This document shows positions 1,492 to 63,747 of a DNA stretch of 64,000 nucleotides, piece by piece. This DNA comes from Laetmonice hystrix. Its lineage: Eukaryota. The DNA lies in NCBI GenBank assembly GCA_965235115.1, contig OZ249436.1, positions 186,001 through 250,000 on the forward strand, read 5' to 3'. Numbering within the stretch: position 1 is the stretch's first letter; every line of letters begins with the position of its first letter. Under the pieces are notes generated by a model that searched no databases, was not told the DNA's origin, and worked only from the letters and a program-made list of their open reading frames with translations. A program made the translations under genes and the position numbers.

Positions 1492-1605
1492 ATATTGACG
1501 ATTGCCCCATGATGAACTGTATGAACGGGGCTACCTGTAACGATGGAGTTAACATGGCGACATGTTCGTGCGCGGATGGATATGAAGGCGCCATGTGCCA
1601 AACAA
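1492..1605 (+). CDS. Ca-binding EGF-repeat protein (fibropellin/Notch-like repeats), internal exon
   Basis: 114-bp phase 1-1 exon bounded by AG and [40 protein letters not shown], with the six-Cys EGF pattern. Confidence 0.85.
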
Positions 1606-2325
1606 GTAGGTCCATACCTCGTGCCTATAACAACCTTTTACATTATATACTGGCACACTCTGCCAAACAAGTAGGTCCATACCTCGTGCCTACAACAACC
1701 TTTTACATTATATACTGGCACACTCTGCCAAACAAGTAGGTCCATGATACATCGTGCCTATAACAACCTTTTACATTATATACTGGCACACTCTGCCAAA
1801 CAAGTAGGTCCATGATACATCGTGCCTATAACAACCTTTTACATTGTATACTGGCACACTCTGACATACAAGTAGGTCCATGATACATCGTGCCTATAAC
1901 AACCTTTTACATTGTATACTGGCACACTCTGACATACAAGTAGGTCCATGATACATCGTGCCTATAACAACCTTTTACATTGTATACTGGCACACTCTGA
2001 CATACAAGTAGGTCCATGATACATCGTGCCTATAACAACCTTTTACATTGTATACTGGCACACTCTGACATACAAGTAGGTCCATGATACATCGTGCCTA
2101 TAACAACCTTTTACATTGTATACTGGCACACTCTGACATACAAGTAGGTCCATGATACATCGTGCCTATAACAACCTTTTACATTATACTGGTACCCTCT
2201 GCCAAACAAGTAGGTCCATGATACCTCGTGCCTATAACAACCTTTTACATTATATACTGGCACCCTCTGCCAAACAAGTAGGTCCATGATACAACGTGCC
2301 TATAACAACCTTTTACATTATACGT
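1595..2325. repeat. 68-bp minisatellite, ~11 copies, containing the exon end and splice donor
   Basis: The unit includes TGCCAAACAA|GTAGGTCCAT, the preceding exon/donor junction. TCCATG recurs at 1741 and 1809. Confidence 0.95.
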
Positions 2326-2509
2326 ACTGCATGCAAAGTGAGCTTTATATATAGCAGATATTTCTGATTGTAACGGGACATATGACTTTAGAGGCACTGG
2401 TGTGGAGGAACGACCCAAACTTTCTAAATTTGGTAATTGATGTTTCCGGGAAGGCGTTCTTAGTTATACATTACCTCGGTCTTATAGAAATAATATCTTT
2501 ATTTTACAG

Positions 2510-2623
2510 ACATTGACGAGTGCGAGTCAATCCCTTGTGAGAATGGGGGAACATGTCAGGACAGCATTAACAGTTTTACATGTGATTGCGAGGCAGGATA
2601 CACAGGCAATACATGCCAATCAG
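2510..2623 (+). CDS. Ca-binding EGF-repeat protein, internal exon
   Basis: 114-bp phase 1-1 exon: [46 protein letters not shown] acceptor, GT donor at 2624. Not in the ORF track. Confidence 0.9.
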
Positions 2624-2866
2624 GTGGAGATTTAAATACTCTACAAATATCTAAGCTAATCACACACCTTTCGATTTTAGCTACGACTTTGGCCGAGGAG
2701 CATAGTGACATGCCTAGTATTGTTTGCAAGTTTGCACAAAATCACATACTATTATACACTTGGCGCAGCCAATTAAACAATCTGATTGGTCCATTTGGAC
2801 CACATGACCGTCCCGAAAATAGGAAACAATGTTACGATATGGGATGGTTTGCTTGACCCAGAATGG

Positions 2867-4548
2867 GCATAAGTGTGTATTATAGCAAACGTTGGATCGT
2901 AACATTAGTGTGTGTATTATAGCAAACGTTGGATCGTAACATTAGTGTGTGTATTATAGCAAACGTTGGATCGTAACATTAGGATGGTAGCAGAAGTGTG
3001 TATTACAGCGAACGTTGGATGGTAGCATAAGTGTGTATTATAGCGAACGTTGGATGGTAGCATAAGTGTGTATTATAGCGAACGTTGGATGGTAGCATAA
3101 GTGTGTATTATAGCAAACGTTGGATGGTAGCATAAGTGTGTATTATAGCAAACGTTGGATCGTAACATTAGGATGGTAGCAGAAGTGTGTATTACAGCGA
3201 ACGTTGGATGTAGCATAAGTGTGTATTATAGCGAACGTTGGATGTAGCATAAGTGTGTATTATAGCAAACGTTGGATCATAACATTAGTGTGTGTATTAT
3301 AGCAAACGTTGGATCGTAACATTAGTGTGTGTATTATAGCAAACGTTGGATCGTAACATTAGTGTGTGTATTATAGCAAACGTTGGATCGTAACATTAGT
3401 GTGTGTATTATAGCAAACGTTGGATCGTAACATTAGTGTGTGTATTATAGCAAACGTTGGATCGTAACATTAGGATGGTAGCAGAAGTGTGTATTACAGC
3501 GAACGTTGGATGGTAGCATAAGTGTGTATTATAGCGAACGTTGGATGGTAGCATAAGTGTGTATTATAGCGAACGTTGGATGGTAGCATAAGTGTGTATT
3601 ATAGCAAACGTTGGATGGTAGCATAAGTGTGTATTATAGCAAACGTTGGATCGTAACATTAGGATGGTAGCAGAAGTGTGTATTACAGCGAACGTTGGAT
3701 GTAGCATAAGTGTGTATTATAGCGAACGTTGGATGTAGCATAAGTGTGTATTATAGCGAAGGTTGGATGTAGCATAAGTGTGTATTATAGCAAACGTTGG
3801 ATCATAACATTAGTGTGTGTATTATAGCAAACGTTGGATCGTAACATTAGTGTGTGTATTATAGCGAACGTTGGATCGTAACATTAGTGTGTGTATTATA
3901 GCAAACGTTGGATGGTAGCATAAGTGTGTATTATAGCAAACGTTGGATCGTAACATTAGTGTGTGTATCACAGCGAACGTTGGATCGTAACATTAGTGTG
4001 TGTATTATAGCAAACGTTGGATCGTAACATTAGTGTGTGTATTATAGCAAACGTTGGATTGTAACATTAGTGTGTGTATTATAGCAAACGTTGGATTGTA
4101 ACATTAGTGTGTGTATTATAGCAAACGTTGGATAGTAACATTAGTGTGTGTATTATAGCAAACGTTGGATTGTAACATTAGTGTGTGTATTATAGCAAAC
4201 GTAGGATCGTAACATTAGTGTGTGTATTATAGCAAACGTTGGATCGTAACATTAGTGTGTGTATTATAGCGAACGTAGGATCGTAACATTAGTGTGTGTA
4301 TTATAGCAAACGTTGGATCGTAACATTAGTGTGTGTATTATAGCAAACGTTGGATTGTAACATTAGTGTGTGTATTATAGCAAACGTTGGATCGTAACAT
4401 TAGTGTGTGTATTATAGCAAACGTTGGATCGTAACATTAGTGTGTGTATTATAGCAAACGTTGGATCATAACATTAGTGTGTGTATCACAGCGAACGTTG
4501 GATGGTAGCATAAAGTTTGTATTATAGCAAACGTTGGATAGTAGCATA
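2867..4548. repeat. 35-37-bp minisatellite with two interspersed unit types
   Basis: Units ATTAGTGTGTGTATTATAGCAAACGTTGGATCGTAAC and GTAGCATAAGTGTGTATTATAGCGAACGTTGGATG. Confidence 0.95.
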
Positions 4549-4549
4549 A

Positions 4550-4752
4550 TTTCGCTACTCCGGTCAAATGTTGCTACTCGGGTCGTCGATTTCGATCTTC
4601 GGCTCGCAGATTTCGGTACTCGGGTCCAATGTCCCGAGTAGCGAAATCTGCAAGCCGAGTAGCAACATTGGACCCGAGTACCGAAATCTGCGAGCCGAGG
4701 ATCGATATTGACGAACCGAGCAGCAACATCTTCAGGACCGGAGTAGCGACAT
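4550..4752. repeat. ~200-bp imperfect palindrome (MITE-like core)
   Basis: Inverted arms TCGCTACTCCGGTC...GACCGGAGTAGCGA and CTCGCAGATTTCGGTACTCGGGTCCAATGT...ACATTGGACCCGAGTACCGAAATCTGCGAG. Confidence 0.75.
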
Positions 4753-4998
4753 TTGTGACCCAAGGATCACAGTACTATCGTGTCCGGGCCCAGTTGGTGT
4801 CGAATCCTAGTCAGGGGACTAAGAATGTCGTTTTCCGACTGAGCTTTCATAGTTTTAGGTTTCAGAATCTTGACAAATCTACGGCAGGGCAAATAACAAA
4901 ATATAAAAAATAAGAAAATCGTCCTGGCTATTAAAGCTAGTCTCGCTTCCTGAAATAGCAATACCCAAATATTTAAAGATAGTACTGCATGTCGAAGT

Positions 4999-5610
4999 TT
5001 ACTGTCGAGATAGTCTAGGTACTTTGTGTGTGTTACTGTCGAGATAGTCTAGGTACTTTGAGTGTTACTGTCGAGATAGTCTAGGTACTTTGTGTGTGTT
5101 ACTGTCGAGATAGTCTAGGTACTTTGTATGTGTTACTGTCGAGATAGTCTAGGTACTTTGTGTGTGTTACTGTCGAGATAGTATAGGTACTTTGTGTGTG
5201 TTACTGTCGAGATAGTCTAGGTACTTTGTGTGTGTTACTGTCGAGATAGTCTAGGTACTTTGTGTGTGTTACTGTCGAGATAGTATAGGTACTTTGTGTG
5301 TGTTACTGTCGAGATAGTATAGGTACTTTGTGTGTGTTACTGTCGAGATAGTATAGGTACTTTGTGTGTGTTACTGTCGAGATAGTATAGGTACTTTGTG
5401 TGTGTTACTGTCGAGATAGTCTAGGTACTTTGTGTGTGTTACTGTCGAGATAGTCTAAGTACTTTGTGTGTGTTACTGTCGAGATAGTCTAGGTACTTTG
5501 TGTGTGTTACTGTCGAGATAGTCTAGGTACTTTGTGTGTGTTACTGTCGAGATAGTCTAAGTACTTTGTGTGTGTTACTGTCGAGATAGTCTAGGTACTT
5601 TGTGTGTGTT
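4999..5610. repeat. 34-bp minisatellite, ~18 copies
   Basis: Unit TTACTGTCGAGATAGTCTAGGTACTTTGTGTGTG. Ends ~30 bp before the acceptor at 5641. Confidence 0.95.
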
Positions 5611-5641
5611 AAGTAACCCTTTCTACGACCACGTGCTTCAG

Positions 5642-5746
5642 ATATCAACGAGTGTGATGACCCCGCCTCGTGCGCCAGTCCCTTCGGGGTCTCTGCGTGT
5701 TCAAACACTGTGGGCGGATTTGTCTGTGCATGTTCCGCCTGCGCTG
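5642..5746 (+). CDS. Ca-binding EGF-repeat protein, penultimate exon
   Basis: Phase 1-1 exon: DINECDDPASCASPFGVSACSNTVGGFVCACSACA. TTCAG acceptor, GTAGG donor. Confidence 0.8.
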
Positions 5747-6289
5747 GTAGGCACCTTCCTTCATTATAACCTGAGGCACTGTATGCATGGGGAAGTGTGG
5801 CACTGACCTGGCACTGGCGGATCGGGGGAGGGGGGGGGGCTCTGGTAGGCACCTTCCTTCGTTATAACCTGAGGCACTGTATGCATGGGGAAGTGTGGCA
5901 CTGACCTGGCACTGGCGGATCGGGGGGGGGGGCACATGGGGTCGGTCCAGACCCCCCCCCCCCCTCCTAAAATTTCATGGCGCCCCTCCTGCCGATCATG
6001 GCGCTCCACGAAATTGTAGGCCTAGGCCTACATAAGACTTTACACCTTGGTCATTGAATAGTTTAGACCTATTAGCTCCAAAATGCATCAGACTACACCA
6101 AACAACACCTTGACTTTCAAAATTTTCATAAAATGCCCCCGGACCACCCCCCCCCCCCCCACACACACACACACACCCTAGCAAGGCTTCGCGCCTTCGT
6201 AGCACCGGTAGCGCCCCTAAAAACTTTGGATCCCCCCATGCTAGACTAAAAGCTGGATCCGCCCCTGCCTGGGGAAAAGTGACGCTGAC

Positions 6290-6812
6290 CTAGGGGACAA
6301 CTGACACTGACATGGGGACGAGTGACACTGACCTGGGAACAACTGACACTGACATGGGGACGAGTGACACTGACATGGGGACGAGTGACACTGACATGGG
6401 GACGAGTGACACTGACATGGGGACGAGTGACACTGACATGGGGACGAGTGACACTGACATGGGGACCAGTGACACTGACATGGGGACCAGTGACACTGAC
6501 GGACGAGTGACACTGACGGACGAGTGACACTGACGGACGAGTGACACTGACATGGGGACCAGTGACACTGACATGGGGACGAGTGACACTGACATGGGGA
6601 CCAGTGACACTGACATGGGAACAACTGACACTGACATGGGGACGAGTGACACTGACATGGGGACGAGTGACACTGGCATGGGGACGAGTGACACTGACAT
6701 GGGGACGAGTGACACTGACATGGGGACGAGTGACACTGACGGACGAGTGACACTGACATGGGGACCAGTGACACTGACATGGGGACGAGTGACACTGACA
6801 TGGGGACGAGTG
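6290..6812. repeat. 21-bp minisatellite with a 17-bp variant
   Basis: Unit GACACTGACATGGGGACGAGT. It accounts for the repetitive ORFs at 6.2-7.0 kb. Confidence 0.95.
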
Positions 6813-6849
6813 AGGGATGAGTCACGCTCACCCCCCATGTGAGTGTCAA

Positions 6850-7065
6850 TGATTCATCGGGCGATGAACCAATGAATGCCTCTGTCTGTTGGAGGTAATG
6901 TCGGGTTAACAACCAGCCATGAGACGACAGCGACAACAGGCAAATAGATTGTTGAATTTCGTTAGGTTTCTCCATTTATGTGGGTATACATCTTTGTACT
7001 TTAAGGCCTTATCTAAGCTAACAGCCCATGTCGTCATTTAGGATCATATCTGAACTAAGATAATC
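6850..7065. mobile_element. Right half of the MITE family also found at 45.1-45.4 kb and 51.5-53.0 kb
   Basis: Shares ATTCATCGGGCGATG..CCAATGAAT, TTTCTCCAT...GTGGGTATACAT and AGGCCTTATCTAA.CTAACAGCCCATGTC with the other copies. Confidence 0.7.
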
Positions 7066-7071
7066 GTCGAA

Positions 7072-7706
7072 TGGTTTGAACGGGACTACTACCTTAGCGC
7101 CTGTTTGAAGGGGACTACATGTACTACCTTAGCGCCTGTTTGAACGGGACTACATGTACTACCTTAGCGCCTGTTTGAACGGGACTACATGTACTACCTT
7201 AGCGCCTGTTTGAACGGGACTACATGTACTACCTTAGCGCCTGTTTGAACGGGACTACATGTAGAGAGTCTACTACCTTAGCGCCTGTTTGAACGGGACT
7301 ACATGTACTACCTTAGCGCCTGTTTGAACGGGACTACATGTACTACCTTAGCGCCTGTTTGAACGGGACTACATGTACTACCTTAGCGCCTGTTTGAACG
7401 GGACTACATGTACTACCTTAGCGCCTGTTTGAACGGGACTACATGTACTACCTTAGCGCCTGTTTGAACGGGACTACATGTACTACCTTAGCGCCTGTTT
7501 GAACGGGACTACATGTACTACCTTAGCGCCTGTTTGAACGGGACTACATGTACTACCTTAGCGCCTGTTTGAACGGGACTACATGTACTACCTTAGCGCC
7601 TGTTTGAACGGGACTACATGTACTACCTTAGCGCCTGTTTGAACGGGACTACATGTACTACCTTAGCGCCTGTTTGAAGGGGACTACTACCTTAATTAGC
7701 GCCTGT
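7072..7706. repeat. 35-bp minisatellite, ~17 copies
   Basis: Unit GTTTGAACGGGACTACATGTACTACCTTAGCGCCT with palindromic TACATGTA core. Ends ~65 bp before the acceptor at 7771. Confidence 0.95.
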
Positions 7707-7771
7707 AAAATTGTCCAGTTTTGGTATAACTTATTATATGTGAAGATGCTCCGTGATTGTTTTCTCTACAG

Positions 7772-7863
7772 GGACCTGTGCGAACATCGGGGGCTGCGGC
7801 AATCCGAGGGCATGTAATGCTGTCACCATCCTCGTCACTGCCACTTTAGTCACCTGCGGCTGA
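7772..7863 (+). CDS. Probable terminal coding exon of the EGF-repeat gene
   Basis: TTTCTCTACAG acceptor. The phase-1 continuation gives GTCANIGGCGNPRACNAVTILVTATLVTCG* and supplies the Cys missing from the previous exon. Confidence 0.6.
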
Positions 7864-8975
7864 GCTTGATGGCCAGGGCTCTGAACCCAGTGGTTCTCTC
7901 TAGTAACACCAGATGGCGTGAGACGAGTTGGTGTCGTACTAGACCACGCCCACATCTCGGCCGCTGGCTCGCTCGACTGACAAAACCGCTTGACGGGAAT
8001 CGTTTAGGAACCTTCGATTGGCGAAAAATATTAAGGGGTTTAACAAGTACATGTATATGAATATATATTTAATATATCATTATATCGCTCAGTGATTATT
8101 TGGCCCTGTTGCCGTGTTTTAGTACGCTGGTTTAGGAGTAAGCCTATGGATATATAGGCCAACTGTCATTTTATTCGGTGGCCTAAGGTCTACATTTTAT
8201 TGGGCGGCCTACACCAAAAATTCCTCAGATATGTAGGTTACTTAGCTTTGAATCCAGGAATATATCTAGGCTGATTTGGAACGGCGACCCGCCGTGCCCC
8301 CAACAGGCTCCGCCACTCTATGCCCTTTTTTGCCCCAAAAGCTGCCACTGGTGCCTTTCTGACAACCAAAGATCCGCCGGTGGTGCCCTTATAACACTGC
8401 CACACATGCCTATAGTCAGGGAATATTATGAGAAATCGGGGCAATCTGGGAACAAATTCCTTACCAAGAAATTTCTTCACCAATGTGTTGATAAAGGTGT
8501 CTACTAACATATGTCAAAAAGTTTAAACTCAACTCCCCTAGGAGAACCCGTGGCTGCTGCTGAAAGTTGGGGTACGCGGAACCCTATGCTCCATATGGAC
8601 TGATTTGATTGTACACGTTACGGGGCGGTGTGACGTAAACTATGGGGCCCAATGGAAGCACAGGAACATGTATTACAAATTACAGATGTGTCCCTTACCC
8701 AGAGTGAGTAGTTGGTTGGGTTACAATGATAGGAAGAAACCCGCGCAGTTTAAATTCAACTCCTGTAGGAAAACCCATGCAGGGCCATACGCGGGGGGGG
8801 GGGGGGGGGTGCAGTCCACCCCACCCCCACCCCCCACCCCCACCCCCACACACAGAGGGCTGAAGGGAGTTCCGCAAAATTATAAAAAAAAAACAAAAAA
8901 AACTTAAAGTTCTGATTCTCTTTCATGCTTTGAACCAATTTCCATGAGAATTTTGTCTCCAATACCGGGAAATAG

Positions 8976-19136: not shown

Positions 19137-19162
19137 CACGAGGTGGTCTGTTTACACCAGCA

Positions 19163-46497: not shown

Positions 46498-46510
46498 GGT
46501 CGGTGTCGGA

Positions 46511-50324: not shown

Positions 50325-50332
50325 CGGAGATA

Positions 50333-50836
50333 GATGGAATAACGTTATTGGAGAGGTGGTTTGATTCATGGTCAGATGGGATAACGTTATTGGAGAGGTG
50401 GTTTGATTCATGGTCAGATGGGATAACGTTATTGGAGAGGTGGTTTGATTCATGGTCAGATGGGATAACGTTATTGGAGAGGTGGTTTCATTCATGGTCA
50501 GATGGGATAACGTTATTGGAGAGGTGGTTTGATTCATGGTCAGATGGGATAACGTTATTGGAGAGGTGGTTTGATTCATGGTCAGATGGGATAACGTTAT
50601 TGGAGAGGTGGTTTGATTCATGGTCAGATGGGATAACGTTATTGGAGAGGTGGTTTGATTCATGGTCAGATGGGATAACGTTATTGGAGAGGTGGTTTGA
50701 TTCATGGTTAGATGGGATAACGTTATTGGAGAGGTGGTTTGATTCATGGTCAGATGGGATAACGTTATTGGAGAGGTGGTTTGATTCATGGTCAGATGGG
50801 ATAACGTTATTGGAGAGGTGGTTTGATTCATGGTCA
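50333..50836. repeat. 39-bp minisatellite, ~13 copies
   Basis: Unit AGATGGGATAACGTTATTGGAGAGGTGGTTTGATTCATGGTC-type with palindrome ATAACGTTAT. Begins within the SINE TSD. Confidence 0.93.
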
Positions 50837-51479
50837 GGCCAAAATATCAAATTAATCAATGGCTTTCATCGTTGTGACATATCGTCGCGTGATTGTAAGG
50901 TGCAAAATAGAATAAATCATGATGGGCCTACAATCAATTGAAAGGCGGCGAAACGACTCGCTACTCGCCAATTCGCCAATGGTGATTACTTTCTTAAATT
51001 GGCGAAGAAGCTTAATAATGGCGATAGTTTGGGCGAATTGTACTCAAAATATCTTCCAGCAACGACACTGTAGAATGGACATGTGGTTGTCTGAGATTGT
51101 GACGAGTAGAATGGGGAGGGAAGGGGATTGATGGTCGTGTCAGGTATAGCAAAGGTGGGCGTGAGCTGCTAGAGGCTACTTCCAGGGTAGTACGGGGGCA
51201 GGGTGTCATGGTAAAAAAAAACATCTGAGAAAGATTTCCAGTAGCACACTCCTACTTACAACTGTAGAGTAACTGGGAGGATCTACTAGATCTTCATTAT
51301 CATTATTGCCAAGTATTTCAGGCCTTGGCCAAATATATTGCCCGAGTCCGAGTTTCTAGTAATGTTACATCATTTTCAGGTTTTGTTTGATTTTTTTTCA
51401 GATCAGAATTGTGATTTTTTTTCTGACATTGTTGTTAACTTGACAGGAAGAATTCTCGGGGTGAGATGGGTAGTATTAA

Positions 51480-53039: not shown

Positions 53040-53115
53040 TTAATGCAGCAGTATTCCGTTTCAGAAATTGGTTTAGAATTTTAGTTACAGAGAGGGAACA
53101 CCCCCCACCCCTCCA

Positions 53116-53778
53116 CACCCTGCCTGTTACAGCCAAAACCCCTGCCTGTTACAGCCAAAACCCCTGCCTGTTACAGCCAAAACCCCTGCCTGTTACAGCA
53201 AAAAACCCTGCCTGTTACAGCAAAAAACCCTCCCTGTTACAGTCAAAACCCCTGCCTGTTACAGCCAAAACCCCTGCCTGTTACAGCCAAAACCCCTGCC
53301 TGTTACAGCCAAAACCCCTGCCTGTTACAGCAAAAAACCCTCCCTGTTACAGTCAAAACCCCTGCCTGTTACAGCCAAAACCCCTCCCTGTTACAGTCAA
53401 AACCCCTCCCTGTTACAGTCAAAAACCCTCCCTGTTACAGTCAAAACCCCTCCCTGTTACAGTCAAAACCCCTCCCTGTTACAGTCAAAACCCCTGCCTG
53501 TTACAGTCAAAATCCCTCCCTGTTACAGTCAAAACCCCTGCCTGTTACAGTCAAAACCCCTCCCTGTTACAGTCAAAACCCCTCCCTGTTACAGTCAAAA
53601 CCCCTGCCTGTTACAGTCAAAACCCCTCCCTGTTACAGTCAAAACCCCTGCCTGTTACAGTCAAAACCCCTCCCTGTTACAGCCAAAACCCCTGCCTGTT
53701 ACAGCAAAAAACCCTCCCTGTTACAGTCAAAAACCCTCCCTGTTACAGTCAAAACCCCTGCCTGTTACAGCCAAAACC
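53116..53778. repeat. 22-bp minisatellite
   Basis: Unit CCCTGCCTGTTACAGCCAAAAC and variants. Confidence 0.95.
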
Positions 53779-54397
53779 ACAATGTGTCTGACTGACAGTA
53801 AGTCGTGTTACCAAGGTGACGGGGACATTGACAGAAGCAGAGGGCAGTCTTTGGTCGGATCTCAGGGACCTTCAGGACTTAGTCGTCAAGCAGCGGGGTA
53901 GGCCAGCTCTATCAGCGCTCCTCCAGGTGTTGATATGTAAGTGCTGGGGGAGCTAATGGATCCAACCAATCACTTAGCACAGAGCCCTGCTCTCAGTCGG
54001 CCATAGATACCATGTCCGTATAGATACAGTTGCTCGTGCTGCAGGCAGGGATAAGAAAGTCTGACGGTCCGGTACCAAGACTCGCTGATCTCACTACAAA
54101 ACTGTCCACAAACACGAAAATCTTCACGTTTTACAATGTTGTAATTTTTTGTAATTATTCCTGTGTGATCCATGGGTAATGCGCTAACAAAGTGAACCTC
54201 GGTGTTTAGGCCTAGTATAGGATTCAAACAACCCTAAGGGGTCGACCACCATAACAATATTTCAGTGATTCAGTGTGGACTCTATGTGGACTATATATGG
54301 ACTTTATGTGGACCCTATGTGGACACCTGTCAGACCTAACGCCCAGATATGCGCAAGATTGTGCGATGGCGAATTCCCTTTTGACGGAGCTGGAGAA

Positions 54398-56896
54398 CGG
54401 GTTGTAAGGGCAGCATGGGGTGTAAGGGCAGCACGGGTTGTAAGGGCAGCACGGGGTGTAAGGGCAGCACGGGTTGTAAGGGCAGCTTGGGGTGTAAGGG
54501 CAGCACGGGTTGTAAGGGCAGCACGGGGTGTAAGGGCAGCACGTGGTGTAAGGGCAGCACGGGTGGTTGTAAGGGCAGCACGGGTTGTAAGGGCAGCACG
54601 GGGTGTAAGGGCAGCACGGGTGGTTGTAAGGGCAGCACGGGTGGTTGTAAGGGCAGCACGGGGTGTAAGGGCAGCACGGGGTGTAAGGGCAGCACGGGTT
54701 GTAAGGGCAGCACGGGTGGTTGTAAGGGCAGCACGGGTGGTTGTAAGGGCAGCACGGGGTGTAAGGGCAGCACGGGTTGTAAGGGCAGCACGGGGTGTAA
54801 GGGCAGCACGGGGTGTAAGGGCAGCACGGGTTGTAAGGGCAGCACGGGTTGTAAGGGCAGCACGGGTTGTAAGGGCAGCACGGGGTGTAAGGGCAGCACG
54901 GGTTGTAAGGGCAGCACGGGTGGTTGTAAGGGCAGCACGGGGTGTAAGGGCAGCACGGGTTGTAAGGGCAGCACGGGTGGTTGTAAGGGCAGCACGGGTG
55001 GTTGTAAGGGCAGCACGGGGTGTAAGGGCAGCACGGGTTGTAAGGGCAGCACGGGGTGTAAGGGCAGCACGGGGTGTAAGGGCAGCACGGGTTGTAAGGG
55101 CAGCACGGGTTGTAAGGGCAGCACGGGTTGTAAGGGCAGCACGGGGTGTAAGGGCAGCACGGGGTGTAAGGGCAGCACGGGTTGTAAGGGCAGCACGGGT
55201 TGTAAGGGCAGCACGGGTTGTAAGGGCAGCACGGGGTGTAAGGGCAGCACGGGTTGTAAGGGCAGCACGGGTGGTTGTAAGGGCAGCACGGGGTGTAAGG
55301 GCAGCACGGGTTGTAAGGGCAGCACGGGTGGTTGTAAGGGCAGCACGGGTGGTTGTAAGGGCAGCACGGGGTGTAAGGGCAGCACGGGTTGTAAGGGCAG
55401 CACGGGGTGTAAGGGCAGCACGGGGTGTAAGGGCAGCACGGGTTGTAAGGGCAGCACGGGTTGTAAGGGCAGCACGGGTTGTAAGGGCAGCACGGGGTGT
55501 AAGGGCAGCACGGGGTGTAAGGGCAGCACGGGTTGTAAGGGCAGCACGGGTTGTAAGGGCAGCACGGGTTGTAAGGGCAGCACGGGGTGTAAGGGCAGCA
55601 CGGGTTGTAAGGGCAGCACGGGGTGTAAGGGCAGCACGGGGTGTAAGGGCAGCACGGGTTGTAAGGGCAGCACGGGTTGTAAGGGCAGCACGGGTTGTAA
55701 GGGCAGCACGGGTTGTAAGGGCAGCACGGGTTGTAAGGGCAGCACGGGTGGTTGTAAGGGCAGCACGGGGTGTAAGGGCAGCACGGGTTGTAAGGGCAGC
55801 ACGGGTTGTAAGGGCAGCACGGGTTGTAAGGGCAGCACGGGTTGTAAGGGCAGCACGGGTTGTAAGGGCAGCACGGGGTGTAAGGGCAGCACGGGTTGTA
55901 AGGGCAGCACGGGTGGTTGTAAGGGCAGCACGGGGTGTAAGGGCAGCACGGGTTGTAAGGGCAGCACGGGGTGTAAGGGCAGCACGGGTGGTTGTAAGGG
56001 CAGCACGGGTTGTAAGGGCAGCACGGGTTGTAAGGGCAGCACGGGTTGTAAGGGCAGCACGGGGTGTAAGGGCAGCACGGGTTGTAAGGGCAGCACGGGT
56101 TGTAAGGGCAGCACGGGTTGTAAGGGCAGCACGGGGTGTAAGGGCAGCACGGGGTGTAAGGGCAGCACGGGGTGTAAGGGCAGCACGGGGTGTAAGGGCA
56201 GCACGGGTGGTTGTAAGGGAAGCACGGGTGGTTGTAAGGGCAGCACGGGGTGTAAGGGCAGCACGGGGTGTAAGGGCAGCACGGGTGGTTGTAAGGGAAG
56301 CACGGTTGGTTGTAAGGGCAGCACGGGGTGTAAGGGCAGCACGGGGTGTAAGGGCAGCACGGGTGGTTGTAAGGGAAGCACGGTTGGTTGTAAGGGCAGC
56401 ACGGGGTGTAAGGGCAGCACGGGGTGTAAGGGCAGCACGGGTGGTTGTAAGGGAAGCACGGTTGGTTGTAAGGGCAGCACGGGGTGTAAGGGCAGCACGG
56501 GGTGTAAGGGCAGCACGGGTGGTTGTAAGGGAAGCACGGTTGGTTGTAAGGGCAGCACGGGGTGTAAGGGCAGCACGGGGTGTAAGGGCAGCACGGGTGG
56601 TTGTAAGGGCAGCACGGGGTGTAAGGGCAGCACGGGTTGTAAGGGCAGCACGGGGTGTAAGGGCAGCACGGGGTGTAAGGGCAGCACGGGTGGTTGTAAG
56701 GGCAGCACGGGGTGTAAGGGCAGCACGGGTGGTTGTAAGGGCAGCACGGGGTGTAAGGGCAGCACGGGGTGTAAGGGCAGCACGGGATGTAAGGGCAGCA
56801 CGGGTTGTAAGGGCAGCACGGGGTGTAAGGGCAGCACGGGGTGTAAGGGCAGCACGGGGTGTAAGGGCAGCACGGGGTGTAAGGGCAGCACGGGTT
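54398..56896. repeat. 18/21-bp G-rich minisatellite, array 2 (same unit as array 1)
   Basis: Same unit and orientation as array 1; source of the 827-884 aa ORFs. Confidence 0.95.
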
Positions 56897-57550
56897 AGGC
56901 CTGGAAAACGTATTTTTTATATTCTATAAAATTGCTACTGGTGGTGATTTTTGATAGAATTGGAAGGCAGGGTTTCTGACAACGTATCAATTATCCTAGG
57001 TGTTTTTGACCTAACCTCAAGATGTTATTTATAGTATGTATTGACATGTTCAGTATTGTGGCTCGAGGCTGTATGTATCGGAATATACGACGACTTAAAG
57101 GGTATTTCAGCTGCTCCGAGGCGCTGGGATTGAAACATGATTACATGATTATCGGATTCTTTCTAACACCCCGATCAGGGCGCTGACTCGCACCCCTCCC
57201 CACGTCGAGAGTGAATTCAGTACTGACTTGTAGTAGTAGTATACCGTCGATCCGTGTCCTAGCAATCCCTCAGCCCGGGGTACAATATACAGCTGATTCT
57301 GCCATTGGATTGGACAGATTTACATAAAGCAACGGGTGATTTACATATTTCACACCTGCACTGGGGATGTAAAATGATGCTAATGTACGTGAACAAAGTG
57401 AGGGTATTCTGCTTGACATCGGTCAACAGTCTACAGCTTGCGGATACTGTGAATTATTTCGTTACCATCGTGGTTCAATCTTTTTACTATTATACGGACA
57501 GGCAAGCTGGTAAATGAAAATACGAGTGAATTTTGAAGACACTAAATTTG

Positions 57551-59853
57551 GCTCAACTTGGCAGTGGTCAAAGGGGTTGTCAGCTCACCTTAGGGGTGAG
57601 CACTGCTCAACTTGGCAGTGGTCAAAGGGTTGTCAGCTCACCTGAGGGGTGAGCACTGCTCAACTTGATAGTGGTCAAAGGGGTTGTCAGCTCACCTTAG
57701 GGGTGAGCACTGCTCAACTTGGCAGTGGTCAAAGAGGTTGTCAGCTCACCTTAGGGGTGAGCACTGCTCAACTTGGCAGTGGCCAAAGGGTTGTCAGCTC
57801 ACCTTAGGGGTGAGCACTGCTCAACTTGGCACTGGTCAAAGGGGTTGTCAGCTCACCTGAGGGGTGAGCACTGCTCAACTTGGCACTGGTCAAAGGGGTT
57901 GTCAGCTCACCTGAGGGGTGAGCACTGCTCAACTTGGCAGTGGTCAAAGGGGTTGTCAGCTCACCTTAGGGGTGAGCACTGCTCAACTTGGCAGTGGTCA
58001 AAGGGGTTGTCAGCTCACCTGAGGGGTGAGCACTGCTCAACTTGGCAGTGGTCAAAGGGGTTGTCAGCTCACCTTAGGGGTGAGCACTGCTCAACTTGAT
58101 AGTGGTCAAAGGGGTTGTCAGCTCACCTGAGGGGTGAGCACTGCTCAACTTGGCAGTGGTCAAAGGGTTGTCAGCTCACCTGAGGGGTGAGCACTGTTCA
58201 ACTTGGCAGTGGTCAAAGGGGTTGGCAGCTCACCTGAGGGGTGAGCACTGCTCAACTTGGCAGTGGTCAAAGGGTTGTCAGCTCACCTGAGGGGTGAGCA
58301 CTTCTCAACTTGGCAGTGGTCAAAGAGGTTGTCAGCTCACCTTAGGGGTTAGCACTGTTCAACTTGGCAGTGGTCAAAGGGGTTGTCAGCTCACCTGAGG
58401 GGTGAGCACTGCTCAACTTGGCAGTGGTCAAAGAGGTTGTCAGCTCACCTGAGGGGTGAGCACTTCTCAACTTGGCAGTGGTCAAAGAGGTTGTCAGCTC
58501 ACCTTAGGGGTGAGCACTTCTCAACTTGGCAGTGGTCAAAGGGTTGTCAGCTCACCTTAGGGGTGAGCACTTCTCAACTTGGCAGTGGTCAAAGAGGTTG
58601 TCAGCTCACCTTAGGGGTGAGCACTGTTCAACTTGGCAGTGGTCAAAGAGGTTGTCAGCTCACCTGAGGGGTGAGCACTGCTCAACTTGGCAGTGGTCAA
58701 AGGGTTGTCAGCTCACCTGAGGGGTGAGCACTGCTCAACTTGGCAGTGGTCAAAGAGGTTGTCAGCTCACCTGAGGGGTGAGCACTGCTCAACTTGGCAG
58801 TGGTCAAAGGGTTGTCAGCTCACCTGAGGGGTGAGCACTGCTCAACTTGGCAGTGGTCAAAGAGGTTGTCAGCTCACCTTAGGGGTGAGCACTGCTCAAC
58901 TTGGCAGTGGTCAAAGAGGTTGTCAGCTCACCTGAGGGGTGAGCACTGCTCAACTTGGCAGTGGTCAAAGGGTTGTCAGCTCACCTGAGGGGTGAGCACT
59001 GCTCAACTTGGCAGTGGTCAAAGAGGTTGTCAGCTCACCTGAGGGGTGAGCACTGCTCAACTTGGCAGTGGTCAAAGGGTTGTCAGCTCACCTGAGGGGT
59101 GAGCACTGCTCAACTTGGCAGTGGTCAAAGAGGTTGTCAGCTCACCTTAGGGGTGAGCACTGCTCAACTTGGCAGTGGTCAAAGAGGTTGTCAGCTCACC
59201 TGAGGGGTGAGCACTGCTCAACTTGGCAGTGGTCAAAGGGTTGTCAGCTCACCTTAGGGGTGAGCACTGCTCAACTTGGCAGTGGTCAAAGGGTTGTCAG
59301 CTCACCTTAGGGGTGAACACTGCTCAACTTGGCAGTGGTCAAAGAGGTTGTCAGCTCACCTGAGGGGTGAGCACTGCTCAACTTGGCAGTGGTCAAAGAG
59401 GTTGTCAGCTCACCTTAGGGGTGAGCACTGCTCATCTTGGCAGTGGTCAAAGGGTTGTCAGCTCACCTGAGGGGTGAGCACTGCTCAACTTGGCACTGGT
59501 CAAAGGGGTTGTCAGCTCACCTTAGGGGTGAGCACTGTTCAACTTGGCAGTGGTCAAAGAGGTTGTCAGCTCACCTTAGGGGTGAGCACTGCTCAACTTG
59601 GCACTGGTCAAAGGGGTTGTCAGCTCACCTGAGGGGTGAGCACTGCTCAACTTGGCACTGGTCAAAGAGGTTGTCAGCTCACCTTAGGGGTGAGCACTGC
59701 TCAACTTGGCACTGGTCAAAGAGGTTGTCAGCTCACCTTAGGGGTGAGCACTGCTCAACTTGGCAGTGGTCAAAGAGGTTGTCAGCTCACCTTAGGGGTG
59801 AGCACTGCTCAACTTGGCAGTGGTCAAAGAGGTTGTCAGCTCACCTTAGGGGT
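57551..59853. repeat. 53/54-bp minisatellite with internal hairpins
   Basis: Unit GCTCAACTTGGCAGTGGTCAAAG(A/G)GGTTGTCAGCTCACCT(T/G)AGGGGTGAGCACT. Confidence 0.95.
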
Positions 59854-61619
59854 GTTTTCAGTGAGGAAGTAGACATATTAGTATTAAATGTGAACCAATA
59901 TTTGTTTAGTTTGTGATATGAATTGTCTCAACTAGGGTTTGTTCGCTCAGTGTCCAATGGTTAAAGTGGTTTTGTTTTGTGGTTCAGCGCTCGGATTGCA
60001 ATTAGCGGGAGTTACCCTACCCAAATCATGGAAGGTAAAAGAAAAATCGACTTTCAAAAATTCTAGAGTGGATATTTGTGAACCCTTGTTCTTGGAAGTG
60101 ATCTCGGCGCAATGTCAGCCAGTATTTACCGTTGTCCACGCTTCTTTTCATGAGGTTTGGGATAAAGAAAGAATTGGTGCCCACCTTGTAAACATTATTG
60201 GCCGACAACAGGCCTCAGTATGTGCGTATCGTAGAGCTATACATCCAGTGTGGGTAGTTGTTTATGACTACGGACATGGATTCGTATTATACATCATTTT
60301 AAAGTGCAAGGTTGGTTGTTTATAATTGGATCATCAGGTACAAAGTACCTAGTCACACCTTTTTACAAAGGGCGTTTTTGTCGTTTTATCCAGTGATGTC
60401 TCTGGTTCTTTTCAAAGTTTATCTTATATAATCTCTCAACAAATATTTCCAAGGAGTGATAAAATATATCTTTGTATAGAGCAGGTCTAGAGCCTCTTAT
60501 ACGTGGTTTCTTTATAATTGTGTACCTAACTCTTTCCTGGGAATAAAATCCCAAACATTTCTAGAAAACACAGGTGACGGTCAGGAGTGGCGGCTGGCAA
60601 AGCTTTATCAAGCCTGTTCTCACCTACGTCCGCGCTTTTGCGGGTGATTGGTATATAATCCCCACCGTCAGATCAGACGGGACACTCATACACTCAGTGA
60701 CACACTCAGACTCAGACTCAGACACTCAGACTCAGACACACATACACAGAGAGATATCAGTTCATGGGTCATGGGTATGGGTCACTCTCTGGACCCACGC
60801 TGACCAGCCACGCCACGCCGCTGCCCTCTTGACCGCCGACCGCTACTATGGACAGCCATTGCCAGGTTGGTGAGTATTGTATATTGTAGCCAGGTACGCC
60901 ATGTATCTCTTCTTTGTATAATGTTTCCGGCATCCTGCCATCTTCTGTGACACTATGGACATTCCCTGGTGTCCACTCCTGGCCTTGGCCATTTTTATTT
61001 AACACCATCGTAGTGTTTTACTCGTAGGCCGTTAGGCCTATATGTTATTAACAAGGACAGTAATGTAATAAAATCATGAATGTTCACTAGTACTTCTTAT
61101 TACGTTTTCTTCATTAATTAACAATTTGACTCCCCCACACAAGGCAGAGTCGGCCATGATCCGGTATTATTCGTTGGTGTCGGGTATACGCACTTAAACC
61201 CGCTCCACGAAATGCGTGTCGATCATTCCGAGCTAAGAACCCCTTTAAAACTGAGATCCTGCCATGTACAGTTAACGTGTAGATCAGGAACATCGTTTTG
61301 AAGGAAGTCCAAGTCGCTCAGGCTAGGAGGGGCGCAGAAGGGAGGGGGTGATTGACAGGGTTAACAACCCCTCAGTGAGAGGACAAAACTGGCGTCCCCT
61401 CACCCGCCCCCGTTTTAGTGGCAATTTTACTGCCATGTCAGTTGTGAGGATTGGTATGGGTCAAAGCTCGGCTTGAGAACCTGTACTTGATACAGCAGTT
61501 TGCCGTTATCGTAGGGTTTATGCTGTCCACTGATACTAACAAATCGACGTTGAGAGGTACACTTTACCGGGAACCTTCTGTCAAGGAAAGCGGCCAGTGT
61601 TACTCTGTGGAGACGAACA

Positions 61620-62468
61620 CAGAGGCAGGGCTGAGGGAGGAATAAGTTTTTGGGAGGTCTTGGCACCGACAATTAGGGTTAGGGGCAGGGCTGGGGGAGG
61701 AATACTTTTTGGGAGGTCTTGGCGCCGACAATAAGGGTTTGGGTTAGGGGCAGGGGCAGGGCTGGGGGAGGAATACGTTTTTGGGAGGTCTTGGCGCCGA
61801 CAATAAGGGTTTGGGTTAGGGTTAGGGGCAGGGCTGGGAAGGGTTAGGGTTAGGGGCAGGGCTGGGAAGGGTTAGGGTTAGCGGCTGGGAAGGGTTAGGG
61901 TTAGGGGCAGGGCTGGGAAGGGTTAGGGGCAGGGCTGGGAAGGGTTAGGGGCAGGGGCAGGGCTGGGAAGGGTTAGGGGCAGGGCTGGGAAGGGTTAGGG
62001 TTAGGGTTAGGGGCAGGGCTGGGAAGGGTTAGGGTTAGCGGCTGGGAAGGGTTAGGGGCAGGGGCAGGGCTGGGAAGGGTTAGGGTTAGGGGCTGGGAAG
62101 GGTTAGGGTTAGGGGCAGGGCTGGGTAGGGTTAGGGGCAGAGCTGGGAAGGGTTAGGGTTAGCGGCTGGGAAGGGTTAGGGGCAGGGGCAGGGCTGGGAA
62201 GGGTTAGGGGCAGGGCTGGGAAGGGTTAGGGGCAGGGCTGGGAAGGGTTAGGGGCAGGGCTGGGAAGGGTTAGGGGCAGGGGCAGGGCTGGGAAGGGTTA
62301 GGGTTAGGGGCTGGGAAGGGTTAGGGTTAGGGGCAGAGCTGGGAAGGGTTAGGGGCAGGGCTGGGAAGGGTTAGGGGCAGGGCTGGGAAGGGTTAGGGTT
62401 AGGGGCAGGGCTGGGAAGGGTTAGGGTTAGGGGCTGGGAAGGGTTAGGGGCAGGGGCAGGGCTGGGAA
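61620..62468 (+). repeat. Interstitial telomere-like G-rich array
   Basis: TTAGGG units mixed with GCAGGG, CTGGG and AAGGG; continuous GGG tracts. Confidence 0.9.
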
Positions 62469-62602
62469 TAGTGAGAGTTGTTTGTTATTATCCCAGTTTT
62501 GATGTATAGGTTACGACGAGGATCTACTGTGACAGCCACCATTGGGTTCACTTAGGTACATGTTGGGACGCGGTCATTGAGGGCTAATCGAGCAGGACTT
62601 AC

Positions 62603-62720
62603 CTTTTAATCCCGTTAATCCAAGTTCACCCGTCTCGCCCTTCTCACCCTTCCGACCGTCGTCTCCCCGCGAGCCGTGCATCCCTGGCACGCCCGGCACG
62701 CCTGGAGTGCCGGTCGGTCC
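62603..62720 (-). CDS. Collagen-C1q protein, upstream collagen exon
   Basis: ACACAG acceptor, GTAAGT donor: [39 protein letters not shown]. Ends in phase 1, continuing Gly-X-Y into the exon at 47070. Not in the ORF track. Confidence 0.9.
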
Positions 62721-62996
62721 CTGTGTTCAAGGTCACAATAAGGTCATTGGTGACTTTCTGATGGATAGACCCTCAGTCATAGCTCACATCTACACTAACA
62801 AACAGTTCGTACAGTTAGGTTTGTTCACGTTTCTCCCACAGCGCTTTTAATCACGGACAATTCTTGAAGTTCAAACGACTTGGGTCAGACAGTCAACTGT
62901 TTACTGACCTCGTTATAACGATAAGCATGTTTTGAATACACCAAAGAAAAGTCGTGGATGATTAGGGAAAGGATATTTTAAAGGACAGTCACTTTG

Positions 62997-63747
62997 CATG
63001 TTACTTTGTGAACCACAGACGTTGGTTTGTGTCATACCTGCTACATGTTACTTTGTGAACCATAGACGTTGGTTTGTGTCATACCTGCTACATGTTACTT
63101 TGTGAACCATAGACGTTGGCTTGTGTCATACCTGCTACATGTTACTTTGTGAACCACAGACGTTGGTTTGTGTCATACCTGCTACATGTTACTTTGTGAA
63201 CCACAGACGTTGGTTTGTGTCATACCTGCTACATGTTACTTTGTGAACCACAGACGTTGGTTTGTGTCATACCTGCTACATGTTACTTTGTGAACCATAG
63301 ACGTTGGTTTGTGTCATACCTGCTACATGTTACTTTGTGAACCATAGACGTTGGTTTGTGTCATACCTGCTACATGTTACTTTGTGAACCATAGACGTTG
63401 GCTTGTGTCATACCTGCTACATGTTACTTTGTGAACCATAGACGTTGGTTTGTGTCATACCTGCTACATGTTACTTTGTGAACCACAGACGTTGGTTTGT
63501 GTCATACCTGCTACATGTTACTTTGTGAACCATAGACGTTGGTTTGTGTCATACCTGCTACATGTTATTTTGTGAACCATAGACGTTGGTTTGTGTCATA
63601 CCTGCTACATGTTACTTTGTGAACCATAGACGTTGGTTTGTGTCATACCTGCTACATGTTACTTTGTGAACCATAGACGTTGGTTTGTGTCATACCTGCT
63701 ACATGTTACTTTGTGAACCATAGACGTTGGTTTGTGTCATACCTGCT
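62997..63747. repeat. 47-bp minisatellite, ~16 copies
   Basis: Unit CATGTTACTTTGTGAACCA(C/T)AGACGTTGGTTTGTGTCATACCTGCTA. Confidence 0.95.

Follow-up and report, generated by a model that had tools for sequence, protein, structure and literature searches.

What has filled this locus with minisatellites, and why do so many of them lie beside exon edges? The window, meaning the whole stretch of 64,000 bases analysed here (C1:186001-250000), had been described in a first-pass annotation as holding about 18 arrays of mostly unrelated units across roughly 45% of its length. Analysis with TRF returned 93 rows, which were merged and kept when the period was at least 10 and the length at least 150 bp. 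The resulting 25 arrays cover 31,486 of the 64,000 bases (49.2%), and merging 35 intervals by hand gives 32,190 bases (50.3%); counting the seven arrays within one palindromic element as a single array brings the number to 19. The earlier description is borne out. Periods range from 17 to 98 bp, with within-array matches of 76-98% by TRF. The units are indeed mostly unrelated, since only two of 171 pairs stand out against shuffles: the 68-bp unit paired with its own paralogue, and the 21-bp unit paired with a piece of the adjacent 98-bp unit (22 of 26 positions identical). The 18-bp arrays at 51724 and 54397 form a single family.

Arrays and exons are closely associated in a multi-EGF gene on the forward strand that continues upstream of the window. 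Exon A1 (1492-1605, 114 nt, phase 1-1) matches Pfam EGF (PF00008) at 30.5 bits (cut-off 21.5) and has predicted splice signals cag/AT (acceptor) and AA/gtaggt (donor). Exon A2 (2510-2623), of the calcium-binding type, has predicted splice sites and matches the same family at 35.5 bits, and cbEGF exon A3 (5642-5746, 105 nt) scores barely above the cut-off for EGF_CA (PF07645; 27.3 bits against 27) and is distinguished from its paralogous exon by an indel of 3 nt that stays in frame. At a duplication junction lies a truncated piece of an EGF exon (1345-1434), and given this fragment the gene may be partly decayed. The first unit of a 68-bp array (1596-2322, 10.8 copies) consists of the last 10 nt of A1 plus the donor, which the array reiterates about 11 times; the sole other copy of this array has about 8 units at 91% identity and adjoins a paralogous EGF exon at C1:172 kb. 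Similarly, a 98-bp repeat (5744-5932, 1.9 copies) starts 3 nt inside A3, so that this donor too is repeated. Directly upstream, the same gene has three further arrays: one of 57-bp units that takes in about 20 nt of exon, one of 63-bp units that begins at donor +1 and one of 65-bp units that takes in 22 nt of exon. All exons bearing such arrays, in the window and upstream, match Pfam EGF. The gene also holds a 37-bp array (2873-4547, 45 copies) common to a segmental duplicate at C1:3.515 Mb, a 34-bp array (4999-5611, 18 copies), a 21-bp array (6270-6813, 27 copies) within a 0.9-kb stretch (6025-6944) missing from the paralogue, and a 35-bp array (7087-7687, 17 copies) that matched only itself in a genome query. 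The 21-bp array has weaker relatives (71-80%) on four chromosomes.

Paralogous copies of this DNA provide a view of how such arrays begin and change. At the site of the 17 units of the 35-bp array, a paralogue 3.3 Mb away (L040) has one 29-bp copy. The first and last copies in the window retain the 29-bp form, inner units have a 6-bp insertion, and the ancestral segment has TGAA microhomology at either end. This comparison shows the birth of an array from local single-copy sequence, although L040 may instead have lost units from a longer array, in which case its one copy would not be the ancestral state. Unique DNA is 93-99% identical between paralogues, and the 98-bp unit is present in 1.9 copies in the window versus about 21 (2.1 kb) in the paralogue. 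The 37-bp array measures 1.7 kb in the window versus 3.1 kb in the segmental duplicate, the 34-bp array has 18 units versus about 20 (at 98% identity), and the 68-bp array has 10.8 units versus about 8. Differences of this kind show turnover of copy number between paralogues.

Other arrays have come from elsewhere. A putative K/E/S-rich orphan gene (gene B) is modelled on the forward strand with exons B1 (25114-25279), B2 (26087-26213), B3 (39494-39597), B4 (39872-39977) and B5 (40351-40619, ending at either a TAA stop or a donor); the model was drawn solely from open reading frames, consensus splice sites and phases that agree across the B2-B3, B3-B4 and B4-B5 junctions. Because none of its exons matched Pfam and protein searches with B5 returned no homologue, 26214-39493 is treated here as a putative B2-B3 intron. 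A 38-bp array of 337 copies (26303-39073, 12.8 kb) fills this interval, and it has 176 matches on nine contigs, the stronger ones at 85-93%, placing it on at least nine chromosomes. It is followed by a conserved tail of about 325 bp (39074-39398), which is 80-90% identical beside the array at six fetched loci that overlap pairwise and so represent about four distinct places, on C12 and C21. The tail terminates in an 18-nt palindrome, beyond which the flanks diverge among loci. As judged from these comparisons, the 38-bp array is imported and belongs to a dispersed element family. A similar combination of satellite-like array and dispersed conserved flanking module is described, in the part of the source drawn on here, for the non-autonomous Helentrons of the Pacific oyster (Cg_HINE), which carry tandem repeats (PMC7492417); unlike those elements, the 38-bp loci share only their right flank, and the likeness consists of array plus tail. 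A second import, a near-perfect palindrome (98%) of 3.8 kb (13774-17559), comprises two head-to-head copies of a dispersed element of about 2 kb that carries the seven internal arrays mentioned above. It has at least 219 matches among the best 40 of 474 candidate loci scored, with dozens full-length at 91-98%. Gene B is bordered by a 42-bp array (22899-25029, 48 copies) and a 68-bp array (40692-41159, 6.4 copies), each of which matched its own locus only.

The third gene is C1q/TNF-like and lies on the reverse strand. Its last exon, C3 (47070-46511), encodes collagen and C1q domains (Pfam Collagen 6.9e-10, C1q 1.7e-25) and a stop codon and has a predicted acceptor; homologues are 56-76% identical, those named being from chiton, tubeworm, abalone, octopus and nemertean, which points to a spiralian host of annelid- or mollusc-like affinity. 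Collagen exon C2 (62720-62603; Pfam Collagen 33 bits) is colinear in tblastn with homologue residues ~44-92, and the C2/C3 junction matches in phase (G + GT). The 15.5-kb intron between them (47071-62602) contains seven arrays of at least 150 bp totalling 8,328 bases (54%), at 49364 (22 bp), 50332 (42 bp), 51724 and 54397 (the 18-bp family), 53118 (22 bp), 57551 (54 bp) and 61624. The last of these (61624-62468) is a degenerate, interstitial telomere-like array with a TTAGGG-derived TRF consensus, and it matches arrays at the ends of chromosomes C1, C2, C3, C6, C8, C12, C17, C18 and C20. Past the stop codon, likely in the 3' UTR, is a 32-bp array (45801-46473, 21 copies) with only weak relatives elsewhere (63-70%), and upstream of exon C2, in the first intron or 5' flank, is a 47-bp array (62997-63755, 16 copies) that matched its own locus only.

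We consider it probable that at least three origins together account for these arrays: local birth, import and segmental duplication, with arrays at donors tolerated as mirages. Under this explanation, a local segment of 20-100 bp would be duplicated in tandem on the spot, probably via slippage between short direct repeats, after which the newborn array might grow or shrink quickly through slippage or unequal exchange. Other arrays arrived within inserted mobile elements that carry their own tandem repeats, as is shown by flanks in common and numerous copies at other loci, and one derives from telomere repeats. Further arrays would have been inherited through segmental duplication. Arrays that repeat a donor could persist if the spliceosome picks the most upstream donor, as in human F7. 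In the mirror case on the acceptor side, the true acceptor would be preceded by false ones; this would account for arrays touching donors yet keeping at least 30 nt from acceptors. Such selective tolerance accounts for the persistence of arrays and not for their enrichment at donors.

Each of these behaviours is of an already known kind. By their sequence arrangement, the donor-anchored arrays of the multi-EGF gene match the mirage minisatellites of amphioxus and human F7. In amphioxus these are described for Adh3 and the globin genes BflGb6 and BflGb9 (PMC3087553, citing Canestro et al. 2002), and in the portion of that article used here, as in the window, units of tens to ~160 bp span an exon-intron boundary and repeat its splice signals, copy number varies between copies and several arrays can occur per gene. 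Amphioxus is a chordate and the present host a spiralian, the window cases are on the donor side only whereas amphioxus has both sides, and the variation seen here is between paralogues, as opposed to alleles or tissues, with splicing predicted (PMC3087553). In human F7, intron 7 holds a 37-bp VNTR, and similar arrays are listed for CBS, LMNB2, PDGF and an interferon-induced gene in the excerpted text of PMC1557585. Its first unit likewise joins the last exon bases to the intron start (4 + 33 nt, compared with 3-22 nt of exon here), identical pseudo-donors follow the true donor, and experiments have demonstrated that the most upstream donor is used (PMC1557585). Unlike F7, upstream-donor use is assumed here, and up to four arrays occupy consecutive introns of one gene. 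Earthworm metallothionein genes offer a parallel for size and turnover, with large minisatellite-class clusters in intron 1 that differ between tandem gene duplicates with like exons; their monomers are longer (25-216 bp) and conserved between two species, and the excerpted sections of that source report no link to exon boundaries (PMC12783039).

Proximity to exon edges was claimed in the first-pass annotation, and most of its distances were borne out by remeasurement. The array placed over a donor at 1595 begins 10 nt inside A1, the one placed ~30 bp before an acceptor ends 30 nt before A3 (at 5611), and that placed ~85 bp before an acceptor ends 84 nt before B1. The 38-bp array starts 89 nt past the B2 donor (~90 bp claimed), the telomere-like array is 134 nt from the C2 donor (~135 bp claimed), and the 32-bp array, which reaches ~46497 if a degenerate copy is included, is 14-37 nt beyond the C1q stop codon (~14 bp claimed). 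Two cases needed adjustment: the array said to end at 7706, ~65 bp before an acceptor, ends at 7687, 84 nt before a putative acceptor at 7772, and that said to start at 40698, ~80 bp after a donor, starts at 40692, 69-72 nt past the end of B5, whether this is a stop or a donor. Of 12 terminal gaps observed in this window, 7 are at most 90 nt, versus 2.7 expected when arrays are placed randomly within each inter-exon interval (P ~6e-4), in a small sample that uses the author's own exon model and a window picked for showing the pattern. When single intervals are dropped in turn, P ranges from 1e-4 to 0.043.

This proximity might be a by-product, an alternative that we regard as possible though doubtful. 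If ancestral introns were short (~100-450 nt), the region saturated with arrays and the 30-90 nt nearest each acceptor obliged to stay, there would be little room, and therefore a 57-98-bp duplication would fall next to the donor. Consistent with this, the non-array DNA left in array-bearing introns is just 187-730 nt, the C1q intron excepted, and the putative B2-B3 intron shrinks to about 185 nt once the 38-bp element is removed. For the upstream 57-bp array, with an ancestral intron of ~100 nt, the chance expectation is already ~0.33, and the terminal-gap result weakens to 0.043 without the 3'-UTR interval. Donor anchoring was seen in 4 independent arrays among 7 array-bearing introns versus 0.76 expected (P ~0.002, or only 0.025 under a looser null), where the input lengths are estimates. 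However, both nulls already allow short spacers and nevertheless give P ~6e-4 and 0.002, two mirage arrays lie in introns with ~400-450 nt of room, and the gap between genes B and C offers 4.7 kb of non-array DNA, yet each of its two arrays is only 37-69 nt from a gene end.

Alternatively, and in our estimate improbably, a process linked to splice sites could make or favour donor arrays, either through transcription-linked damage and repair at 5' splice sites or through selection of reiterated U1-binding sites that aid splicing of small exons beside growing introns. The four arrays of the multi-EGF gene have unrelated units and all start between -22 and 0 nt of the donor, which recurs in every unit; none overlaps an acceptor, and the amphioxus and human genes show the same pattern in the text available (PMC3087553, PMC1557585). 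Against this, every case is within one gene of related exon-intron modules, and despite their unrelated units the four arrays may have arisen in events that were not independent. Of six independent EGF donors examined, two lack an array at the donor, the arrays near gene B and C donors are 89 and 134 nt off and both imported, and the mechanism is called unclear in the part of PMC3087553 consulted.

A third alternative, in which most of the arrays reflect dispersed satellite or transposon families that have spread, on the precedent of the Cg_HINE elements (PMC7492417), seems distinctly unlikely. In its favour, 9 of the 25 arrays, holding 15,623 of the 31,486 array bases (50%), are telomere-derived, dispersed or internal to an element, a figure that leaves out the 544-base 21-bp array, classed as ambiguous (16,167 bases with it), and the 54-bp unit occurs as single units at six other loci. 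Five arrays of ambiguous class, which count against the favoured explanation, have relatives at other loci that are weak (63-80%) or consist of one unit. However, of 17 queries with arrays or elements against the assembly (627 Mb, 35 contigs), six matched their own locus only, the paralogue holds a single-copy seed, and the mirage units include the local exon end; dispersed families as the sole explanation are refuted by this seed and the exon-derived units. The earlier proposals are accordingly divided. Local seeding stands for the 35-bp array and the exon-derived units and fails for about half of the array DNA, and the same half (the 38-bp array, the high-copy element and the telomere-derived array) contradicts the view that satellite families did not spread. 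Privacy of units fits the six self-only queries, but the idea of one private array per intron is wrong: introns contain one to seven arrays, and segmental duplicates share four arrays with the window. That arrays or their lengths are assembly artefacts is scarcely credible: assembling long tandem arrays is difficult and lengths here are as assembled, but their variant structure is ordered, their unique flanks are clean, paralogous copies assembled independently carry related arrays, and three sequencing runs, which look like DNA of a single sample, contain 67-72% of the sampled words of 39100-47200, though these may come from the source sample.

The combination of local birth, import and segmental duplication is also to be read in its chromosomal setting, 186-250 kb from the end of a chromosome of 73,773,988 bases (73.8 Mb). 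In human chromosomes, minisatellites cluster subtelomerically, and interstitial telomeric sequences have also been described. Like human subtelomeres, the window combines a high density of locus-specific minisatellites with segmental duplication and telomere-like repeats, all no more than a few hundred kb from the end; unlike them, two other stretches 200 kb from an end disagree, with 65% array in one and 1.7% in the second. A small sample of the interior (ten stretches of 10 kb, 100 kb in total) is about 10% minisatellite, ranging from 0 to 36%, and shows only that minisatellites are common.

The host genome is minisatellite-rich, and the window is gene-bearing, segmentally duplicated DNA near a chromosome end. 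All five introns of at least 0.9 kb hold arrays, which occupy 54-96% of their length and account for the size of each, whereas none of the three introns of 274-807 nt does (B1-B2, 807 nt; B3-B4, 274 nt; B4-B5, 373 nt). On the gene models used here, the arrays appear to have inflated introns of three genes, now 0.9-15.5 kb long, that would otherwise measure about 0.2-0.7 kb, or 7 kb in the case of the C1q intron.

Arrays in this stretch of DNA have arisen from local unique sequence, changed rapidly in copy number and been copied along with segmental duplications, and others have been imported by dispersed elements. Tandem Repeats Finder returned 93 rows for the window, and arrays were defined as merged rows with a period of at least 10 and a length of at least 150 bp. 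The resulting 25 arrays cover 31,486 of 64,000 bases (49%), and a hand merge into 35 intervals covers 50%, so the abundance of arrays reported in the first-pass annotation is real and slightly greater than it had estimated. Unit sizes range from 17 to 98 bp, and matches inside arrays from 76 to 98%. When units of the window and its paralogue were compared against shuffles, only 2 of 171 pairs proved related, namely the 68-bp unit with its own paralogue and the 21-bp unit with part of the 98-bp unit next to it, where 22 of 26 positions agree.

Because the window occupies positions 186001-250000 of contig C1 (73.77 Mb, in an assembly of 627 Mb and 35 contigs), it lies 186-250 kb from the chromosome end. 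One of its arrays is an interstitial telomeric sequence whose consensus holds GGGTTA repeats and which matches, at 70-74%, the first or last few kilobases of C1, C2, C3, C6, C8, C12, C17, C18 and C20; as similar arrays terminate at least nine contigs, the assembly's contigs are nearly complete chromosomes. In ten arbitrary 10-kb stretches of the chromosome interiors, arrays make up 9,978 of 100,000 bases (range 0-36%) and at least one is present in six. Minisatellites are thus widespread in the genome, with the window forming a hot spot. Two other stretches 200 kb from an end consist of 65% and 1.7% array, and these samples do not establish enrichment toward chromosome ends.

The arrays are set among several genes. 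Gene A, a multi-EGF gene on the forward strand, has exons at 1492-1605 (A1), 2510-2623 (A2) and 5642-5746 (A3) that match Pfam EGF or EGF_CA. Its predicted splice sites are of phase 1 and rebuild the D/N-I-D/N-E-C motif, and further EGF exons are found a short way upstream of the window, in segment L038. Gene C, a C1q/TNF-like gene on the reverse strand, has a predicted in-phase join between a collagen exon (62720-62603) and a last exon encoding collagen and C1q (47070-46511). These exons align in order with homologues 261-276 residues long, and the best named homologues are from chiton, tubeworm, abalone, octopus and nemertean, which places the animal among the spiralians; no close paralogue of this C1q gene was found in the genome, where the next-best match is 37% over 67 residues. 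Gene B, on the forward strand at 25114-40619, comprises five open-frame pieces (B1-B5) that are rich in K, E and S, carry consensus splice sites, and agree in phase at the B2-B3, B3-B4 and B4-B5 junctions. Gene B stays putative because Pfam gave no match and homologues of exon B5 were found neither among 259 word-sharing candidates nor in a second search, of 1.84 billion representative proteins; it either encodes a lineage-specific disordered protein or is not a gene. An identification of gene B as RFC1 was rejected, as the RFC1 domain (PF08519) maps to contig C20.

Genes B and C are convergent across 40623-46510, with an array lying no more than about 70 nt from the coding end of each gene. 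The roughly 4.6 kb between these two arrays holds no array of at least 150 bp, and repetitive open frames are present between the genes at 43.3-44.1 kb. Among predicted introns, all five of at least 0.9 kb carry arrays (1, 2, 3, 1 and 7, accounting for 79%, 76%, 66%, 96% and 54% of intron length), and three introns of 274, 373 and 807 nt are array-free. The large introns are large because of their arrays. It had been proposed that most large introns carry one private minisatellite each; arrays are indeed present in every such intron, but their number varies from one to seven.

The privacy of the units was evaluated with 17 array or element queries against the window's own genome, in a search that was limited to scoring the top candidates and passed over highly frequent words, such that a self-only result denotes that no close relative was found. 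Six queries matched only themselves: the 35-bp array, the 42-bp arrays at 22899 and 50332, the 68-bp array at 40692, the 22-bp array at 49364, and the 47-bp array. The 68-bp array at 1596 has its only other copy in a segmental duplicate at C1:172 kb, and the 37-, 34- and 98-bp arrays are common to the window and a second duplicate at C1:3.515 Mb, with one additional weak match each (66-69%) for the 37- and 34-bp arrays. Only weak relatives (63-80%) were found for the 21-, 32- and 18-bp arrays and for the 22-bp array at 53118. As an array, the 54-bp repeat (57551-59854) occurs only here; isolated units with 86-91% identity are present at six other loci, and the array may have been seeded by a fragment of a dispersed element. 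This unit can form two short hairpins (-10.5 kcal/mol with DNA parameters).

The locus specificity of the six self-only arrays is not shared by the 38-bp array (176 matches on nine contigs), the arrays internal to an element at 13774-15746 (219 matches), or the telomere-like array (105 matches genome-wide). Approximately 50% of array bases are dispersed, element-internal or telomere-derived, about 26% are self-only or shared with a paralogue, and about 25% are unclear, with the 21-bp array counted among the latter. The view that arrays are private and locally seeded thus applies to no more than half of the array DNA, clearly to one quarter and unclearly to another, and it fails for the largest array, the element-borne arrays and the telomere-like array.

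The largest array, 12.8 kb of 38-bp units, is followed by a right flank of 325 bp (39074-39398) with 80-90% identity to the sequence beside the same array at six loci examined on C12 and C21, which overlap pairwise and represent about four distinct places. This flank ends sharply at an 18-nt palindrome, beyond which the loci differ, and the left flank (25700-26302) had no match in the genome search. As judged from these alignments, the array is an apparent import, an element bearing its own tandem repeat that is probably mobile, or at least dispersed. In this it resembles oyster Helentron derivatives (PMC7492417) and may be a candidate for that type; such an array would be accompanied by conserved flanking modules, and here the right flank alone appears conserved. 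With this element removed, the putative intron between B2 and B3 would shrink to about 185 nt.

A 3.8-kb palindrome at 13774-17559, with arms that are 98% complementary and 8 nt between the inner arms, consists of two head-to-head copies of an element of about 2 kb. This element, which is built of tandem and inverted sub-repeats, is represented in the genome by dozens of near-identical copies (474 first-look candidates, with dozens of full-length copies at 91-98%). Several other repeats were encountered. Long poly-G/poly-C tracts recur next to arrays and within the 98-bp unit (5835-5850, 8819-8849, 16331-16389 and others). A short dispersed repeat at 6841-7081, with 1,391 first-look candidates genome-wide, often occurs elsewhere in inverted pairs and looks MITE-like. 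Word depth summed over contigs from three sequencing runs is very high at 5964-6007 and 6206-6249, where depth does not equal copy number, suggesting that these pieces belong to very common repeats. Rfam yielded no families at gathering score across the whole window.

Toward its left end, the window is pieced together from segmental duplicates of DNA on the same chromosome, both nearby and 3.3 Mb away, with identities of 76-99% (about 88% or more for most pieces) and with EGF exons included. Positions 1-1083 pair with 6061-7988 of segment L039, positions 1434-2121 with 4018-4698 of L038, and positions 2459-8175 are colinear with C1:3.514-3.522 Mb (in segment L040, C1:3513001-3523000), with 93-99% identity in the unique parts. 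At 1345-1434, 57 nt before A1, lies a truncated EGF exon fragment that has a Pfam EGF/hEGF match and runs into a stop. Its position at the junction of two duplicated segments suggests that the EGF gene may have been partly scrambled here.

These duplicates show the local birth of one array directly. The 35-bp array has 17 units in the window, compared to one 29-bp copy in L040; the first and last window copies have the 29-bp form, and the inner units carry a common 6-bp insertion. The ancestral 29-bp segment is flanked by TGAA microhomology. A single-copy ancestral seed, as anticipated in the first-pass annotation, has thus been found in a paralogue, although the single copy in L040 could instead reflect a collapse. 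Furthermore, array copy number is unstable between paralogues. The 98-bp unit is present in 1.9 copies in the window and about 21 in L040, the 37-bp array spans 1.7 kb versus 3.1 kb, and the 34-bp array has 18 units versus about 20. The 68-bp array has 10.8 units versus about 8 in its paralogue, and a 0.9-kb piece with the 21-bp array is missing from L040. Contigs from the three sequencing runs covered 5612-6269 with short fragments only, and the variant contigs correspond to the paralogue rather than to an allele.

Some arrays in gene A have the form of mirages, which are minisatellites that span an exon-intron boundary such that the splice site is repeated in each unit. In addition to the 68- and 98-bp repeats of the window, short-unit tandem arrays of 57, 63 and 65 bp in L038 share this arrangement. 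The 68-bp array starts 10 nt within A1 and includes a predicted GT donor in each unit, and the 98-bp repeat starts 3 nt within A3 in both paralogues, with its GT donor included. Upstream, the 57-bp array takes in about 20 nt of exon end, the 63-bp array has the donor G as its first base (0 nt of exon), and the 65-bp array, a paralogue of that at A1, includes 22 nt of exon. All adjacent exons are EGF exons by Pfam. Overall, of six independent EGF donors, four anchor an array of independent origin and two have none, and the 57-, 63-, 68- and 98-bp units have no mutual similarity beyond shuffles.

Four such cases compare with 0.76 expected (P about 0.002) for seven array-bearing introns with known donors and even start points, under a null in which ancestral intron lengths are the analyst's estimates; a wider target zone gives P = 0.025. 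The broader proposal that arrays lie near exon edges more often than chance predicts holds in the window, where 7 of 12 terminal gaps are at most 90 nt versus 2.7 expected (P about 6e-4 in a simulation over all inter-exon intervals; 1e-4 to 0.043 when intervals are left out one at a time). This effect is real here, and it stems from gene A and from one array shortly beyond the end of gene B and one shortly beyond that of gene C, which likely lie in 3' UTRs. No array overlaps an acceptor, the closest approach being an array that stops 30 nt before one.

Related arrangements have been described in other animals. PMC3087553 applies the name mirages to boundary-spanning repeats in amphioxus Adh3, which are present in amphioxus globin genes as well, and describes them as haplotype-variable, without disturbance of splicing, and of unclear origin. 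Intron 7 of human F7 carries a 37-bp VNTR whose first unit includes 4 nt of exon and from which the most upstream donor alone is used, and similar arrays occur in CBS, LMNB2, PDGF and an interferon-induced gene (PMC1557585). In two earthworm reports, metallothionein genes have large repeat clusters in intron 1 that differ between tandem duplicates (PMC12783039), and one genome is given as 9.8% tandem repeat (PMC12130307). Given these precedents in amphioxus, human and earthworm, the parts of the finding are of known kinds, and the locus extends known repeat behavior (mirages, transposon-borne arrays and telomere-like repeats) to another animal group. A search of one paper collection turned up no genome-wide study of boundary-spanning minisatellites.

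Minisatellite arrays have been modeled as arising by slippage at short direct repeats. By this mechanism, the arrays here might have been born at such repeats and then grown by slippage or unequal exchange. Donor-side mirages might persist because splicing would choose the first donor, and acceptor-side copies would presumably be harmful. Donor clustering beyond what short introns predict could reflect geometry combined with the history of one gene, or it could reflect a process tied to splice sites. A bolder reading along the latter line holds that a process linked to splicing or transcription makes 5' splice sites the preferred birthplace of minisatellites in this spiralian genome, that they are a main engine of intron growth, and that they exchange sequence with exon ends. 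This proposal is considered improbable at present. Its last element derives from exon A1, whose final 10 nt (1596-1605) are the repeat-unit version rather than the end of the paralogous exon (L038 4167-4188). The last 11 residues of these two exons differ at 8 positions and the first 27 at 1, which hints that the array and the exon end might have exchanged sequence.

The original interpretation, a genome-wide intron expansion seeded locally near exon edges, is therefore upheld in part and for this locus: a local seed and an exon-edge effect are evident in the window, but around 50% of array bases belong to dispersed or imported sequence. For annotators, the locus is a warning that tandem repeats can make up half of a gene region. 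Its paralogues offer a rare view of the states before and after an array was born (1 versus 17 copies) or expanded (2 versus 21). If donor-anchored arrays are common genome-wide, this animal would provide a natural system for studying minisatellite birth, intron growth and a spliceosome that ignores perfect false donors. If minisatellites were in fact born preferentially at 5' splice sites, mirages would be a general way in which introns and exon ends evolve in bilaterians rather than an oddity of amphioxus.
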